This document shows, piece after piece, positions 1 to 39,846 of a stretch of 39,846 nucleotides of DNA. Each line of letters opens with the position of its first letter. Within the stretch, counting starts at the first letter, position 1. Made by a program: the position numbers and the translations under genes. Where the stretch lies: NCBI RefSeq assembly GCF_003334335.1, contig NZ_QOWQ01000039.1; one strand, 5' to 3'. A model generated the notes under the pieces. It made no database searches. It had not been told where the DNA came from and saw nothing but the letters and a program-made list of their open reading frames with translations. This stretch comes from Escherichia coli (GTDB taxonomy: Bacteria > Pseudomonadota > Gammaproteobacteria > Enterobacterales > Enterobacteriaceae).

Positions 1-77
1 AGTTATCGTGAGAGTAATTCATCGGCACGTTAAATCATATCAGGCGTAATACCACAACCCTTAAGTTAGCGCTTATG
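1..77. mobile_element. IS186-like insertion sequence, terminal fragment (element continues beyond the window start); 23-bp terminal inverted repeat at 55-77
   Basis: Positions 55-77 (caacccttaagttagcgcttatg) are the exact reverse complement of 39771-39793 (cataagcgctaacttaagggttg). Sequence inward of the repeat differs between the two edges, as expected for the two different ends of one IS type. The 23-bp sequence matches my recollection of the IS186 terminal repeat. Confidence 0.75.
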
Positions 78-6229: not shown

Positions 6230-9200
6230 TTATTTCCGTACCCGATGTCGGTGCAGCCACATCAGCTTATACGCCGCCGGGATAATAAACAGCGACAGCA
6301 AAGGTGCGGTGATCATGCCGCCAATCATCGGTGCGGCAATCCGGCTCATCACCTCTGAACCAGCCCCCGTTCCCCACAGAATCGGCAGCAGACCGGCGAT
6401 AATCACCGCCACCGTCATCGCTTTCGGGCGCACGCGCAGTACCGCGCCGTGATACAACGCCTCATCCAGCTTCTGCTCACTGAATGTTTGCGGATTATTC
6501 AACGACGGCTCGGCCTCTATGGCGTGACGTAAATACATCAGCATCACCACGCCAAATTCGGCGGCGACCCCGGCGAGGGCGATAAAGCCAGTGCCCGTCG
6601 CCACGGAAAGATGAAAGCCCATCCACCACAGCAACCAGATGCCGCCCACCAGCGCAAACGGTACGCTGCTGATAATCAGCAACGCTTCGCCCACCCGACG
6701 GAACGCCAGATACAACAGCACGAAGATGATCATCAGCGTCATCGGCACCATGAGTTTCAGCTTATGGTTGGCGCGCTCCAGCAACTCGAACTGCCCGGAA
6801 AACGCCACGCTGGTGCCTGGTTTTAACTGCACTTTTTCAGCTATCGCTTTTTGCAAATCGTGAACCACCGACACCATGTCACGATCGCGGGCATCGATAT
6901 AAATCCAGCTCGTCGGGCGCGCATTCTCGGTTTTCAGCATCGACGGTCCGGTAGAGACTTTAACGTCGGCCACGTCTGCCAGGGTGATTTGCTGCTTCAT
7001 CGGCGTCAGGATCGGCAACTGGCGCAGTGCCTGCGGACTATCGCGCCAGCTTTGCGGATAACGCAGATTAATTGGATAACGGGCAATCCCTTCCACCGTT
7101 TCGCCAACCATCGCCCCGCCCACCGCAGAAGTCACAAACAACTGCACATCCGCCACCGTCATACCGTAACGTGCGGCTTTTTCACGGTTAATCTCAACGT
7201 TGATATAGCGCCCACCTTCCAGCCGCTCGGCAAGCGCAGAAGCTACGCCTGGCACCGTTCGTGCCACTTCTTCAATTTGCTCCGCCATCGCGTCGATATC
7301 CGCCAGCACAGTGCCGGAAACTTTAATGCCGATGGGGCTTTTAATGCCGGTTGAGAGCATATCGATACGGTTACGAATTGGCGGCACCCACAGATTCGCC
7401 AGCCCCGGCAGACGCACGGTGTTATCCAGTTCCTCAATGATTTTGTCCATCGTCATGCCTGGCCGCCACTGCTCCTGCGGCTTAAGCTGGATGGTCGTTT
7501 CTACCATCTCCAGCGGAGCAGAATCGGTGGCGGTTTCCGCTTTCCCGGTTTTGCCAAATACCCGCGCCACTTCAGGTACGCTCATAATTAGCTTGTCGGT
7601 TTTTTGCAGCATACTCGCCGCCTCTGCTGCGGAAATCCCCGGCAGCGTCGATGGCATATACAACAAGTCGCCTTCATTGATCTGCGGTAAAAATTCCCCG
7701 CCAACTTTATTGAGCGGCCAGAGAACCGTCAGCACCGAAAGCGCTGCCACCAACAGCGTGGTTTTCGGCCAGTGCAGTACTTTCAGCAATAGAGGATGAT
7801 AAACACGAATCAAAAAGCGATTGAGCGGGTTACTGCTTTCCGGCGGAATTTTGCCACGGATCCAGTAGCCCATCAGGATCGGGATCACTACGATCGCCAG
7901 CAGCGCCGCGCCCGCCATCGCATAGGTTTTAGTGAACGCCAGCGGGCCAAACAGACGCCCTTCCTGCCCTTCCAGGGTGAAGATCGGGATAAACGACAAC
8001 GTGATAATCAGCAGACTGATAAACAACGCCGGACCCACTTCAACAGACGCATCGGTGATCACCTGCCAGCGCGTTTTATTATCCAGCGTGGCGTCAGGAT
8101 GCTGGTGCTGCCACTCTTCCAGCCGTTTATGCGCATTCTCGATCATGACGATAGCAGCATCGACCATCGCCCCGACGGCAATCGCAATGCCACCCAACGA
8201 CATAATATTGGCATTCAGTCCCTGGAAGTGCATGACAATAAAAGCAATACACAACCCCAGCGGCAACGAAATAATCGCCACCAGCGCCGAGCGCACATGC
8301 CAGAGAAACAGCGCACAGACTACCGCCACCACAATAAACTCTTCCAGCAACTTGCCGCTGAGGTTGTCGATGGCGCGGTCAATGAGCTGGCTGCGATCGT
8401 ATGTTGTAACTATCTCCACGCCTTCCGGCAGACTACTTTTCAGCGTTTCCAGTTTGTCCTTCACGGCGGCGATCACTTCACGGGCGTTTTTGCCGGAGCG
8501 CAGGATCACCACCCCGCCTGCCACTTCGCCTTCGCCGTTCAGTTCGGCAATGCCCCGGCGCATTTCCGGTCCAATCTGGACCTTCGCAACATCACGCAGA
8601 TAAACAGGCACGCCATTTTCACTGGCTTTTAAAACGATGTGATTAAAGTCGTCGAGCGTTTGCAGATAGCCGCTGGCGCGCACCATATATTCCGCTTCCG
8701 CCAGTTCGATCGACGAACCGCCCGCTTTCTGGTTTGAAGCATCCAGCGCGCTTTTTACTTCGGCTAGACTGATGCCATACTGTGCCAGGCGCTGAGGATC
8801 GATAACCACCTGATACTCTTTCACCACACCGCCCACCGACGCCACTTCCGCAACGTCAGGGATGGTTTTTAGCTCATATTTGAGAAACCAGTCCTGCAAT
8901 GAGCGTAAATCGGCCAGATCGTGCTTACCGCTGCGATCCACCAGTGCATATTCATAGATCCAGCCAACACCCGTGGCATCTGGCCCCAGCTCGGCGCTGA
9001 CTCCCGCAGGCAGCTTACCCTGTACCTGGTTGAGGTATTCCAGCACCCGCGAACGCGCCCAGTACGGATCGGTACCATCTTCGAAAATGACATACACATA
9101 AGAGTCGCCAAACTGCGAGAAACCACGCACAGTCTTCGCGCCAGGCACCGACAACATGGTGGTGGTTAGCGGATAAGTCACCTGATTTTCAACGATTTGC

Positions 9201-21815: not shown

Positions 21816-21860
21816 AGGGCAAAGCGGAAACGGATAAGACGGGCATAAATGAGGAAGAAA

Positions 21861-21937
21861 TGGCGCGCCCTGCAGGATTCGAACCTGCGGCCCACGACTT
21901 AGAAGGTCGTTGCTCTATCCAACTGAGCTAAGGGCGC
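21861..21937 (-). tRNA. argU: tRNA-Arg (anticodon UCU), argU
   Basis: Reverse complement reads GCGCCCTTAGCTCAGTTGGATAGAGCAACGACCTTCTAAGTCGTGGGCCGCAGGTTCGAATCCTGCAGGGCGCGCCA: full cloverleaf, anticodon loop CUUCUAAG, encoded CCA end. Confidence 0.95.
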
Positions 21938-22179
21938 GTTGATACCGCAATGCGGTGTAATCGCGTGAATTATACGGTCAACCCTTGCTGAGTCAATGGC
22001 TTTTGATCTGGTTGCTGAACAAGTGAACGACCGCGTCTGATTTTCTGATTTATTTCGCTATAGCGGCAAACAAACGCACACCGCTGCGCGTCTGAATCAA
22101 GAAAACCCGTATTTTCATGTATCAAAGTACAATTTCCCGACCTAACGGAAAATTGTCCGCTCCTATGAGACTGGTAACT

Positions 22180-35343: not shown

Positions 35344-36237
35344 CTACAGCGAAATACAGGTCCCCGCTTCGCCCGCCAGCGTCTCTTCAATTCGCGATAA
35401 CGCCCCAATCCACGCGGGTTTACCACGGCTTCTGACATAACCACTCACCGCCGTTACCTTCGGCCCCATCGAACCATCGGCTTTGGCAAATGGCGCTAAC
35501 TCATCCGGTGTGGCATGGCGAATGGCGCGTTGCTGCGGCGTTCCCCAGTTTTCATATACCGCATCAGCATCAGTGAGGATCACCAGCCCATCGGCGTTAA
35601 TCTGCTCAGCGAGCAACGCAGCAGCGAGATCTTTATCAATCACCGCTTCACTCCCTGCCCCATCTTCCGTCACAGGCACACCGCCGCCGCCACTGCAAAT
35701 CACCACATGCCCCTCTTTGAGCAACAACTCGATGGCTTCGCTGTCGAGAATTTTACGCGGTTGCGGAGACGCCACCACCCGGCGCAAATATTTACCATCA
35801 CGTTTCATCTGCCAGCCGTAAGCCGCTTCCAGTGCCTCTTGTTCTTCTGGCTGATAAACCGGACCAATAAATTTCTCTGGCTGCAAAAACGCCGGATCAT
35901 CAGGCGAAACCTCAATGCGCGTCAGCACCGTCGTCACGGGCGGCATCTGCGGCTGTGCGCTCAAACTCTGTGCCAGCATATAGCCAATCATCCCCTGGCT
36001 TTCCGCCACCAGCACATCCAGCGGATACGGTTCTACCTCTTTCCACGCCAGATTCTGCAATGCCAGCAGCCCCACCTGCGGCCCGTTGCCGTGAACAATC
36101 GCCAGCCGATAAGAACGGGCCAGGCGCGCCAGCGCGGGTACAGCACTGGCGATATTGCGATATTGATTTTCTGCCGTCAGCGCCTCGCCGCGCTGGAGTA
36201 AGGCGTTGCCCCCAAGAGCTACAACCAGTGTTTTCAT
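35344..36237 (-). CDS. ybcF: Carbamate kinase-like protein YbcF (ArcC family, 297 aa)
   Basis: 297-aa [33 protein letters not shown]..., amino-acid-kinase fold typical of carbamate kinases. Confidence 0.9.
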
Positions 36238-37049
36238 GGTGTTCCTTGTAATAATTGTTGACCAAGCCAGAACCCCAGCAGCGTATCTGCCCCTGACGTG
36301 TGCCCCAGCGCCAGCAGCGAATCAATCGCAACAGCGGTACGTTTCGGGCAACTCAGAGCATGAACAAAGTGCAGGAGTGGCGAGGCGAAATATCCTTGCG
36401 CGGCGTAGCGTAAATAACTGACGCTCACCGCTGTGGTAACGAGTTGAAGATTGTCGGAACAGGCAAAAAACTGGCGACCAGAGCGCGCATCTAAAGCGCC
36501 ATAATACCAGGCCGCCAGCAGCATTCCGCTCAGCGTATCATCATGACTTGGCGTTAATCCGGGTCCTTTACCCAGCCAGTGCCGCCAGTCGGTCTTAACG
36601 CCATTGAGCGCGGCCTGAAAACAGTGACGAAACTGGCGTAATTCAGCGGGCAGCGGATCGCTTGCCGCCATCGCCAGTGGCCCGAAAAGCCCGGTTTCCT
36701 CCGCGCGTTGCATCCATGCAGCTGCAAGCGGTTGAGGATGCGCAGGCGGCGTAATACGCAGCAAACAATAACGCTGTGGCTGTTTAACCGTGAAACGCCC
36801 GAGGCGAATCCCTTGAGCCACAACCTGCGGTCGTTCATTGCCGCATAATCCACCGCATAACGCATCGAATTGCGCGCGGCGAAGCACCCATCCTCCGGGG
36901 CCGAAACCACTACCCTTACGATGCAGCGTTAACAGTTCGCCGCTTTCCGTCATCAGGTTAATCGCCCGTCGCCACACTCCCGCTAACCGCCAGGACTGGC
37001 GATAATTCGGTGCGCTACTACTGGCAAGCAGAGGATGGATGATCGTCAT
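36234..37049 (-). CDS. ylbF: YlbF, DUF2877 protein of the fdrA-ylbE-ylbF-ybcF cluster (271 aa)
   Basis: ORF 36234..37142 trimmed to the ATG at 37049 ([20 protein letters not shown]...), giving 271 aa; its stop overlaps the ybcF start (ATGA). Confidence 0.8.
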
Positions 37050-37059
37050 TGTGCGTTCC

Positions 37060-38319
37060 TCAACCAATCCCCATGCTTTCAGCCAGTGCTTCCAGCGCCT
37101 GTTCAAAACACGCCAGCGGTGCCCGCACGGTGCCTGCGCCAATCTGCCCGATCCCCGCCTCTTTATGGGCGATACCGGTATTGATGAGTGGCGTAATACC
37201 GGTTTCTACCACGCGACGAATGTCCAGTCCCAGGCAGGCGCCCTGAAAATCCCAGCTTGGGATCTGCAACTGCATATTGCGTTCAAGGTAAATTTCCGCC
37301 ATCTCTTCAGATACCGCCCTGGCCGCTTCCATGCCACCCGCACCGACAAAGCGCGTTACGCCAGGCGCTGCGATCATTGCCGCACCTCCGATACCAAAGG
37401 TTTCGGTAATCGCGCTATCGCCCATATCCGGGTTCGCCTGCTCCTGCGAGAAGCCGGTGAAAAACAGACCTTGCGGAGTGTTTACAGGCGCAGTAAACCA
37501 GCGTTCACCCAGCCCGCTTACCCGAATCCCGAACATATTGCCGTTGCGGGTCATAGCCGTAACGATGCTGCCTGCGCGGATCATCGCGCCAGCATCCATC
37601 GCCGCCTTGCAGTAGGCCATCGCGAGGTTGAGGAAGAACTGATCGGTCACGCTGAGGAAATCCATCACTTCCGCAATGTGCTGTTTATCATGATCGAGGC
37701 GAGCAATTTGTGGGGCCAGCGTACGCATTAACAGTGCTGAGGAAGCAATATTGCGTTGATGGAACTCATCGCCCATGGTAATGCCCTGCGCCATCATCGC
37801 CGTGAGATCGATACCGTGCTCCATGCGCCCCAGCGCCGCGCTTAATACTGGCATTAACACATCGCGCATCCAGCGATGGCGAGTCAGGACATCTTCGCCA
37901 TAAGCGCCAAAACGCATCACTTTGCCGATACCTTCGTTGAGGTTGCAGTACGCCCGGTTGCCGTCGGTCACGTTCTCGACCACCAGCATCGGCATACTGG
38001 CAGAAGTAATACCGCCCATTGGCCCGACGGCATTCACATGGTGACAAGGAATGAAGTTCACTTCCCCCTGCTCCAGTATTGCCAGCGCCTGCGCTTCATC
38101 TTTCGCCCAACCTTCGAACAGACATGCGCCCACGCACGCCCCTTTCATAGGTCCGGTCATCTCCTGCCAGCGCATTGGCGGCCCGGCGTGAAGCAGTGTT
38201 TTGCCCTGGTTTAGTTCGCTGATAAGTGAAGAAGCCGGTTGCACATCCAGCCAGTGTGGACGAGCGCGACGAATTTGTTCGATAACCGCAGCATTGGCTT
38301 GCGCCACTGATGTAAACAT
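37060..38319 (-). CDS. ylbE: YlbE, DUF1116 protein (419 aa), a single uninterrupted frame here
   Basis: 419-aa [31 protein letters not shown]...; position between fdrA and ylbF. Confidence 0.85.
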
Positions 38320-38328
38320 GGGAACCCC

Positions 38329-39770
38329 TTATTGCAAACGTTCTAATAAACGAGCCAGTTTTTTATTGCCGCCGGCGACTGGCGACCATTGGTAATGCCC
38401 AACCGGTTTGCTGGCGCTTTGTAGCTCCAGCGCAAAGCTGCGTAATCCGATGTTAATCACGGCGACGTTTTCCAGTAATGACGGTGTGTGTTGCTGAGTG
38501 GCAGGCGAAAGCGGACGAATCAGTGCCGCCGCCAGCAAGGTGGCTTCCGGCAGCGAACTCACTACCGCGATCCCCGCATCTTCCAGCGTGGCGATTTGCT
38601 GCGAGCGGCATTGCGGGTCACGTTCAGTGCCTGTCACCGTGGCAATGGCATACAGTGGTTGATTGTCTGAACGCGCAGCACAGGCTTTTTGCCAGGCGCT
38701 TACCAGCGAGGCGGCAGGATCGGCGGTCGCACCGAAGCCAATCACGACATCAAGCAGCAATACGCGCACTTGCGGTTTAGCGCCGAGATCGGCAATTAAC
38801 TGATTGCGTAAGGCTGGGTCGATCATCGGATGGGGACGCCCGACGGTGTAGAAATCATCGCCGAGGTCAATAATCTGGTGACCATCGGCGTCGAGCATCA
38901 TGCCGTGATGATGGGTATCGTCGGCTTCCACGCCAAGGTGTCCAGCAAGTAATCCCGCCGCTTCGGCAGCCAGGGTACCGCCGGTATACAAACCGCAAAT
39001 AAATCCGCTGCTGGCAGGCGTTATCGCGTTACGTCGCGCCGTAACGCGTGAAAGCAGGCAAGCCAGGCGTGCGGCCTCATCCAGCGAGGAGGCAAACCAG
39101 ACATTCTCGTCGCGGGCCACCGCCGGGGTATAACCTAAAAACAGCGCCACCGTCGGTTTGCCGGTTGCTTTCATGGCATTAACAATTTTCAGACGCACAG
39201 CTTCGGCAGGCGGTTTTGAAACAAATGCCAGCACTTCGCTTTTCTCGTCTGCACTGAGCATTTCCAGCGCCGTCAGCGCACTGATGCCGCCCACTTCACG
39301 GCTGAGGTCGCGCCCGCCAAGGCCAATCGCGTGAGTAATTCCCTCCCCTGCCAGCGCAATCTGCGAACACAGTTCCTGAATCCCGGTACCGGAAGCGCCA
39401 ATGACGCCAATATTGCCTTCCGGCATCACGTTAGCAAAAGCCAGCGGCGTGCCGGCAATCATCGACGTACCGCAGTCCGGCCCCATCACCAGCAAGCCTT
39501 TTTCCCGCGCGCGGCTTTTAAGTTGGATTTCATCTTCCAGCGTGACGTTATCGGAGAACATCATCACGTTGAGGTTGCGATCCAGCGCCTGGTTCGCCAG
39601 CTCCGCCGCATACTCGCCAGCCACTGAAATCAGCGCCAGACTGGCGTCGGGTAATTTCTGACAGGCACTGTCCCAGCGACGCACCTGCGTCAACGCCTGG
39701 CTGCTGCCTGACCCCTGCGCCAGTTGTTTTAGCGCCTCTTCAAGCTGCTGCATAATCGCCTGCGCGATCC
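38329..39770 (-). pseudogene. fdrA: fdrA (CoA-binding / succinyl-CoA-synthetase-like protein), 5'-truncated by the IS186 insertion; about 480 C-terminal codons remain
   Basis: Frame reads ...GIAQAIMQQLEEALKQLAQGSG... down to the stop at 38329. Upstream of 39770 the frame enters the IS terminus and hits an in-frame TAA at 39784-39786. Full-length FdrA is about 555 aa by my recollection, so roughly 80 N-terminal codons are separated from this part. Confidence 0.7.
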
Positions 39771-39846
39771 CATAAGCGCTAACTTAAGGGTTGAACCATC
39801 TGAAGAATGCGACGCCTCGGTGCCTCGTTAAGACGATGCCTCGCGT
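39771..39846. mobile_element. IS186-like insertion sequence, terminal fragment (element continues beyond the window end); 23-bp terminal inverted repeat at 39771-39793
   Basis: cataagcgctaacttaagggttg at 39771-39793 is the exact inverse of 55-77; element-internal sequence after it (aaccatctgaagaatgcgacgcc...) differs from that of the left copy, consistent with the opposite end of the same IS type. Confidence 0.75.

Follow-up and report, generated by a model that had tools for sequence, protein, structure and literature searches.

In Escherichia coli B and K-12 derivatives, the lon promoter is a hot spot for insertion of IS186 (SaiSree et al. 2001, as cited in PMC3045373 and PMC4618355). We describe here the same element within the first gene of another operon, formerly fdrA-ylbE-ylbF-ybcF and now named allF-allG-allH-allK (PMC11326118, PMC9843812), in which allFGH encode oxamic transcarbamylase and allK encodes carbamate kinase (PMC11326118, PMC9843812, PMC12535856). 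An earlier note on this DNA, made from sequence alone, was right to assign the cluster to the oxamate branch of anaerobic allantoin catabolism but called the assignment proposed, whereas the roles of allFGH and allK have been shown in those studies. The operon is driven from the allD-allF spacer by a promoter that requires both AllS and ArcA and yields about 4,000 Miller units with anaerobiosis plus allantoin, vs about 100 without (PMC12535856).

The first gene of this operon has also been disrupted by engineering (Kim & Kim 2024, PMC11326118; Kim et al. 2021, PMC8550087); a delta-allF strain makes zero oxamate, still consumes allantoin and has raised oxalate (PMC11326118 Table 1). In addition, part of the protein has been crystallized: the structure titled 'Protein fdrA' (PDB 3DMY), a laboratory construct, covers residues 82-555, and this fragment is a dimer (PMC11326118 discussion).

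The window analysed here, a whole stretch of 39,846 nt from an E. coli contig, carries on its minus strand the genes allK (ybcF, the catabolic carbamate kinase, PMC9843812; 35344..36237), allH (ylbF, 36234..37049) and allG (ylbE, 37060..38319), followed by a 3' fragment of allF (fdrA), allF', at 38329..39770. The first three are intact, encoding proteins of 297 aa, 271 aa (PF11392 AllH) and 419 aa (PF06545 AllG), respectively; the allH sequence is identical in Logan contig L004, described below. Intact fdrA has 1,668 nt and encodes 555 aa, about the size given in the earlier note, and allF' is its 3' 1,442 nt (nt 227-1668): two bases of codon 76, then codons 77-555, ending in the stop codon (38329-38331). 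Because the fragment begins at nt 227, it lacks 75 full codons; the earlier estimate that about 80 N-terminal codons are separated, along with the native promoter, is close to the actual 75-79. When 5,426 complete E. coli genomes were searched by megablast, window 38329-39771 was 99.9% identical to annotated fdrA, and among the matches listed the fdrA alignments all end at 39771 rather than running on colinearly through 39771-39846. Position 39771 belongs to the IS, whose opening C is by chance also the next base of fdrA, and only for this reason do the alignments reach one base past 39770. The FdrA family model NCBIfam NF004760 scores the fragment at 864 bits against a cut-off of 433, covering only profile positions 82-555.

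As had been reported in that note, the fdrA frame is open from 39770 down to its stop and is cut at 39770/39771 by an IS186 end. Upstream of the remnant the frame is closed by an in-frame TAA at 39784..39786 (minus strand) within the IS terminal repeat; counted upstream from the hybrid GGG codon it is the fifth, and it is the stop, five codons into the IS, that was noticed before. The last 76 nt of the window (39771..39846, minus strand) are the transposase-distal (IRR) side of the element, with a 76/76 match to the end of MG1655 IS186A. They form a dispersed repeat, occurring at 8,422 places in 2,144 genomes, and the element carrying them bears the PGAP label 'IS4-like element IS421 family transposase'; IS186 belongs to the IS4 family and measures 1,339 bp from repeat to repeat. 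The body of the fdrA copy lies beyond the window end, but reference IS186 copies encode a 370-aa protein matching NF033592 (IS4 family transposase), whose stop lies 171 nt from the IS terminus found at 39771. This geometry places the transposase gene at the fdrA site on the minus strand, codirectional with allF'-allG-allH-allK.

The opposite end of the window, which had escaped the earlier note, is also IS186: positions 1..77 (minus strand) are the transposase-proximal (IRL) side of the copy adjoining hokE, with a 77/77 match to MG1655 IS186A. The terminal repeat of this copy occupies 55-77, and its transposase gene starts with an ATG at 20-22 and runs out of the window. The 23-bp terminal repeat CATAAGCGCTAACTTAAGGGTTG occurs exactly twice in the window, at 39771-39793 (+) and 55-77 (-), both copies being exact and pointing outward, where 0 are expected by chance. 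The hokE and fdrA copies of IS186 share the same orientation, and the one at hokE is a resident, present there in 1,740 complete genomes. Bounded in this way by IS186 at both ends, the window shows one of the two fdrA junctions; it appears to be a short-read contig that the assembler ended at collapsed IS186 copies.

The displaced 5' part of fdrA and a target-site duplication, both suggested as checks in the earlier note, were found in public read-set assemblies. The reciprocal product, in which the 5' part of fdrA continues into the opposite end of the IS, was predicted for each plausible duplication length. The product for an 11-bp duplication (FdrA 1-79 plus HKR, 82 aa) occurs on seven Logan contigs, adjoining allE-allC-allD; a 10-bp duplication was rejected, its predicted 92-aa product being absent from the record. 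In contigs L006-L008 the reciprocal junction reads ...GCGGGGATCGCGCAG|CATAAGCGCTAACTTAAGGGTTGTGGTATT, joining fdrA nt 1-237 to the IS, and the GTTGTGG following the repeat marks this as the transposase-proximal (IRL) end. Two other Logan contigs, L004 and L005, start with the IRR-fdrA junction of the window and are 100% identical to it over 4,502 and 1,647 nt. The 11-bp sequence GGATCGCGCAG (fdrA sense, nt 227-237; CTGCGCGATCC on the + strand at 39760..39770) is therefore present on both IS sides, on separate contigs: in the window, L004 and L005 on one side, and in L006-L008 on the other. Alignment to reference fdrA sets the junction at nt 227 and the insertion point within codons 76-79. With allG, allH and allK in the window, and allD, allC and allE beside the 5' fragment in L006-L008, the operon keeps the order allF-allG-allH-allK, divergent from allDCE, the same layout as in MG1655 and PEC1009. 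Both junctions show the same 5+1+1 sample pattern, which suggests the same carriers, and we infer that both lie in one genome.

These contigs bear on two other explanations of the junction. One is that it is an assembly chimera, with fdrA reads mis-joined to an IS186 end; the junction does lie 76 nt from the contig end, where assemblers are least reliable. We rejected this as scarcely credible, since the junction recurs base for base in independently assembled read sets under different accessions, the break falls exactly at the terminal base of the IS, and the reciprocal junction has a proper target duplication. The other is an IS186-associated rearrangement: the 39.7-kb fdrA'-hokE segment duplicated in tandem or closed into a circle through one IS186, or a deletion or inversion between copies, such that the 5' part of fdrA does not lie beside the IS or a second, intact fdrA copy exists. 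Both window ends lie in same-orientation IS186 (1-77 IRL, 39771-39846 IRR) that a single copy could join, and the window taken alone is compatible both with simple insertion and with IS-associated deletion, inversion or duplication. Such a rearrangement is nonetheless very unlikely: read sets contain the reciprocal fdrA(1-237)-IRL junction with its 11-bp duplication, which a one-junction event would not give; the hokE copy is a resident of 1,740 complete genomes; and simple insertion accounts for all of this in one event. Simple transposition of IS186 into allF/fdrA, with the operon consequences considered below, is the best explanation, and we hold it with high confidence. It is a real but ordinary gene-disrupting insertion, at a previously unreported site (in the literature searched) of a well-known IS, in a gene of established function.

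The new site resembles the one at lon in several ways: the element is the same, the target is G+C-rich and starts with GGGGATC, the direct duplication is short, and expression of the downstream gene would likewise be lost. It differs in lying within coding sequence (allF codons 76-79) and not in a promoter, and in the single orientation of IS186 (the same in all five contigs examined), whereas both orientations have been reported at lon (PMC3045373). At the two resident IS186 sites that we measured, dnaJ and nupC, the duplication is 10 bp long (GGATCACTCC and GGATCATTCC) and lies within a GGGGATC...CCC target, vs 11 bp at fdrA. The fdrA target GGGGATCGCGCAGG (site GGGGATCGCGCAG) has the GGGGATC half seen at these resident sites, the target preference being judged from resident copies only.

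The fdrA-IS186 junction was found at 0 places, at >=80% coverage, among the 5,426 complete RefSeq E. coli genomes, so there is no annotated complete genome in which to read across the IS. The junction is carried by at least seven public read sets, whose contigs include two that match the window without a difference. Genomes PEC1009 and NCTC9041 are 100% identical to the window over 24.9 kb, yet their fdrA is intact. The window fragment differs from MG1655 fdrA at 40 positions and is therefore not K-12. MG1655 itself has an intact annotated fdrA with no IS186 at that site (see also PMC3045373 Table 6), in agreement with the earlier note. Contigs L006-L008 have one private SNP each in 3.8 kb, which means that the carriers do not form a single identical clone. 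The carrier lineage is small, wild and phylogroup-A-like. The simplest reading would be that IS186 inserted once, in the ancestor of a small lineage; it may instead have entered a preferred site more than once. The literature searched contains no mention of IS186 together with fdrA.

The fragment also carries the nonsynonymous change V533G (at 38399), shared with L004 and L005. It is the sole difference from the closest genome across 4,470 nt and occurs in 0 of the 5,380 complete genomes in which the region is present. V533G is a lineage marker, and it may hint weakly at relaxed constraint on the remnant.

We propose the following course for simple insertion. A single IS186 would have jumped into allF codons 76-79, duplicating the 11 bp GGATCGCGCAG, with its transposase gene codirectional with allF. 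The operon would now be in two pieces: (i) the native AllS/ArcA-dependent promoter, driving an 82-aa product (AllF 1-79 plus HKR), and (ii) allF(82-555)-allG-allH-allK, left without a promoter 1.34 kb downstream of the native one. The insertion severs codons 1-79 and the AllS/ArcA promoter from the rest of the operon. Expression of allGHK would drop to whatever IS read-through gives, and ureidoglycolate would then enter the glyoxylate/oxalate route, not the one to oxamate plus carbamoyl phosphate, the latter giving ATP and NH3. Judged from gene structure, allF would be inactivated, with polarity on allGHK; given this structure, the oxamate branch is likely to be lost or strongly reduced.

What remains downstream of the IS is a 474-aa open reading frame, Met82-Gln555 (38329..39753, minus strand; ATG at 39751-39753), containing the Pfam domains CoA_binding and Ligase_CoA and found also on Logan contigs from SRR1815430 (contig in 5 samples) and SRR32903638. 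Its residue range, 82-555, is exactly that of FdrA in PDB 3DMY, although 3DMY is a laboratory construct and AllF(82-555) in the carrier is a predicted protein. Residues 1-79 are cut off by the IS; the N-terminal domain HMA_AllF_N, assigned from a precomputed PF27530 match, falls on the 82-aa N-terminal fragment only, and a Pfam profile search reported no N-terminal AllF domain. The interrupted allele thus encodes no complete AllF with its N-terminal domain. We considered whether FdrA has natural members without this domain, which would favour a functional remnant, and rejected this: the N-terminal region is kept in 147 of 150 diverged FdrA representatives (35-50% identity, aligning from residue 20 or earlier).

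The same conservation weighs against the allele being non-null, i.e. against transposase read-through driving allF(82-555)-allGHK, with a restart at Met82 giving an at least partly functional AllF core. Some expression of the downstream genes is possible, given a codirectional transposase gene and an IS tail without hairpins: a scan found no terminator-like hairpin in the 171 nt from transposase stop to IS end, a result that is uninformative either way. The 474-aa frame is intact with both its domains and equals a fragment that folds and crystallizes as a dimer, and allG, allH and allK are undamaged. On the other hand, neither the IS nor the fdrA remnant showed a sigma-70-like outward promoter in consensus scans (again uninformative either way), and before the Met82 ATG there is just a weak AGG, 5 nt upstream. 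The remnant also bears the private nonsynonymous V533G, and uninduced allF expression is already about 40-fold under the induced level (PMC12535856). Nothing relevant on outward or read-through transcription from IS186 turned up in the literature searched. Altogether we find a non-null allele unlikely. In a stronger form of this idea, the insertion would have rewired the operon toward low, AllS/ArcA-independent expression with an AllF core free of its N-terminal domain, while separately the 39.7-kb segment between the IS186 copies could be amplified; the IS would then sit at the boundary of N-terminal domain and catalytic core, leaving, behind the transposase gene, a frame that equals the independently folding 3DMY fragment. 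This we regard as quite improbable.

Under simple insertion with loss of function, the allele resembles the engineered delta-allF in that the first gene of allFGHK is disrupted, and by analogy the expected phenotype would be the same: allantoin would yield no oxamate, and flux would turn to glyoxylate and oxalate. Unlike a clean delta-allF, the natural insertion allele leaves an 82-aa N-terminal product and the intact Met82-Gln555 frame; it is likely to be polar on allGHK and has a codirectional IS transposase gene upstream. As delta-allF still consumes allantoin, growth on allantoin is a poor test of the allele and oxamate production is the right read-out; the most likely outcome is reduced or lost oxamate production, rather than loss of growth on allantoin.

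Nothing in the IS186-allF insertion challenges current understanding, and its value is mainly practical. Carriers would have their oxamic transcarbamylase operon, itself only recently identified, naturally knocked out or strongly knocked down, and could be used to ask if the oxamate branch matters in the gut. With a remnant frame equal to the crystallized fragment, a carrier also offers a cheap test of the need for the AllF N-terminal domain. As for method, a contig ending in an IS shows only one junction, but if the product of the other junction is predicted, that junction can be looked up in public read-set assemblies.

Other short or chimeric FdrA proteins were noted. A cluster of 241 proteins (the P0151 cluster) consists of short FdrA N-terminal fragments, including products of 64, 67 and 101 aa on complete chromosomes (P0154, P0155, P0163) and partial products of 100-101 aa on up to 25 contigs. 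Further fdrA disruptions of independent origin, or contig breaks, thus occur in E. coli. Three further FdrA-like proteins (P0002, P0007 and P0082; 313-427 aa, 92-99% identical) match residues 1-238, 1-236 and 1-160, respectively, then diverge, and may represent further fdrA alleles that are truncated or fused.

We finally note some peculiarities of IS186 and its surroundings. (i) The two direct copies bounding the window, 39.7 kb apart, are a substrate for IS-IS homologous recombination, by which duplication is possible. Between them, by collinearity with PEC1009 (checked directly only for window 14000-38900), lie cysS, lpxH, folD, purEK, the sfm fimbrial genes, nfrAB and the cus operon. Deletion between the two IS copies would remove cysS, lpxH and folD, which are essential. 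(ii) K-12 carries the DLP12 prophage at argU. In PEC1009, no DLP12 lies beside the tRNA-Arg gene (L011 20362-20438, about window 21860-21940), and the window is 100% identical there. Absence of DLP12 would account for the shorter fdrA-hokE distance, about 40 kb here vs about 61 kb in MG1655 (MG1655 coordinates including those of PMC3045373 Table 6). (iii) The dnaJ-mokC copies of strain 300709 (L002 2501-3839) and MG1655 (L009 191-1529) are identical at 1,339 of 1,339 positions and share the same GGATCACTCC duplication, but are inverted relative to each other, the result either of independent insertions at one preferred site or of inversion in place.
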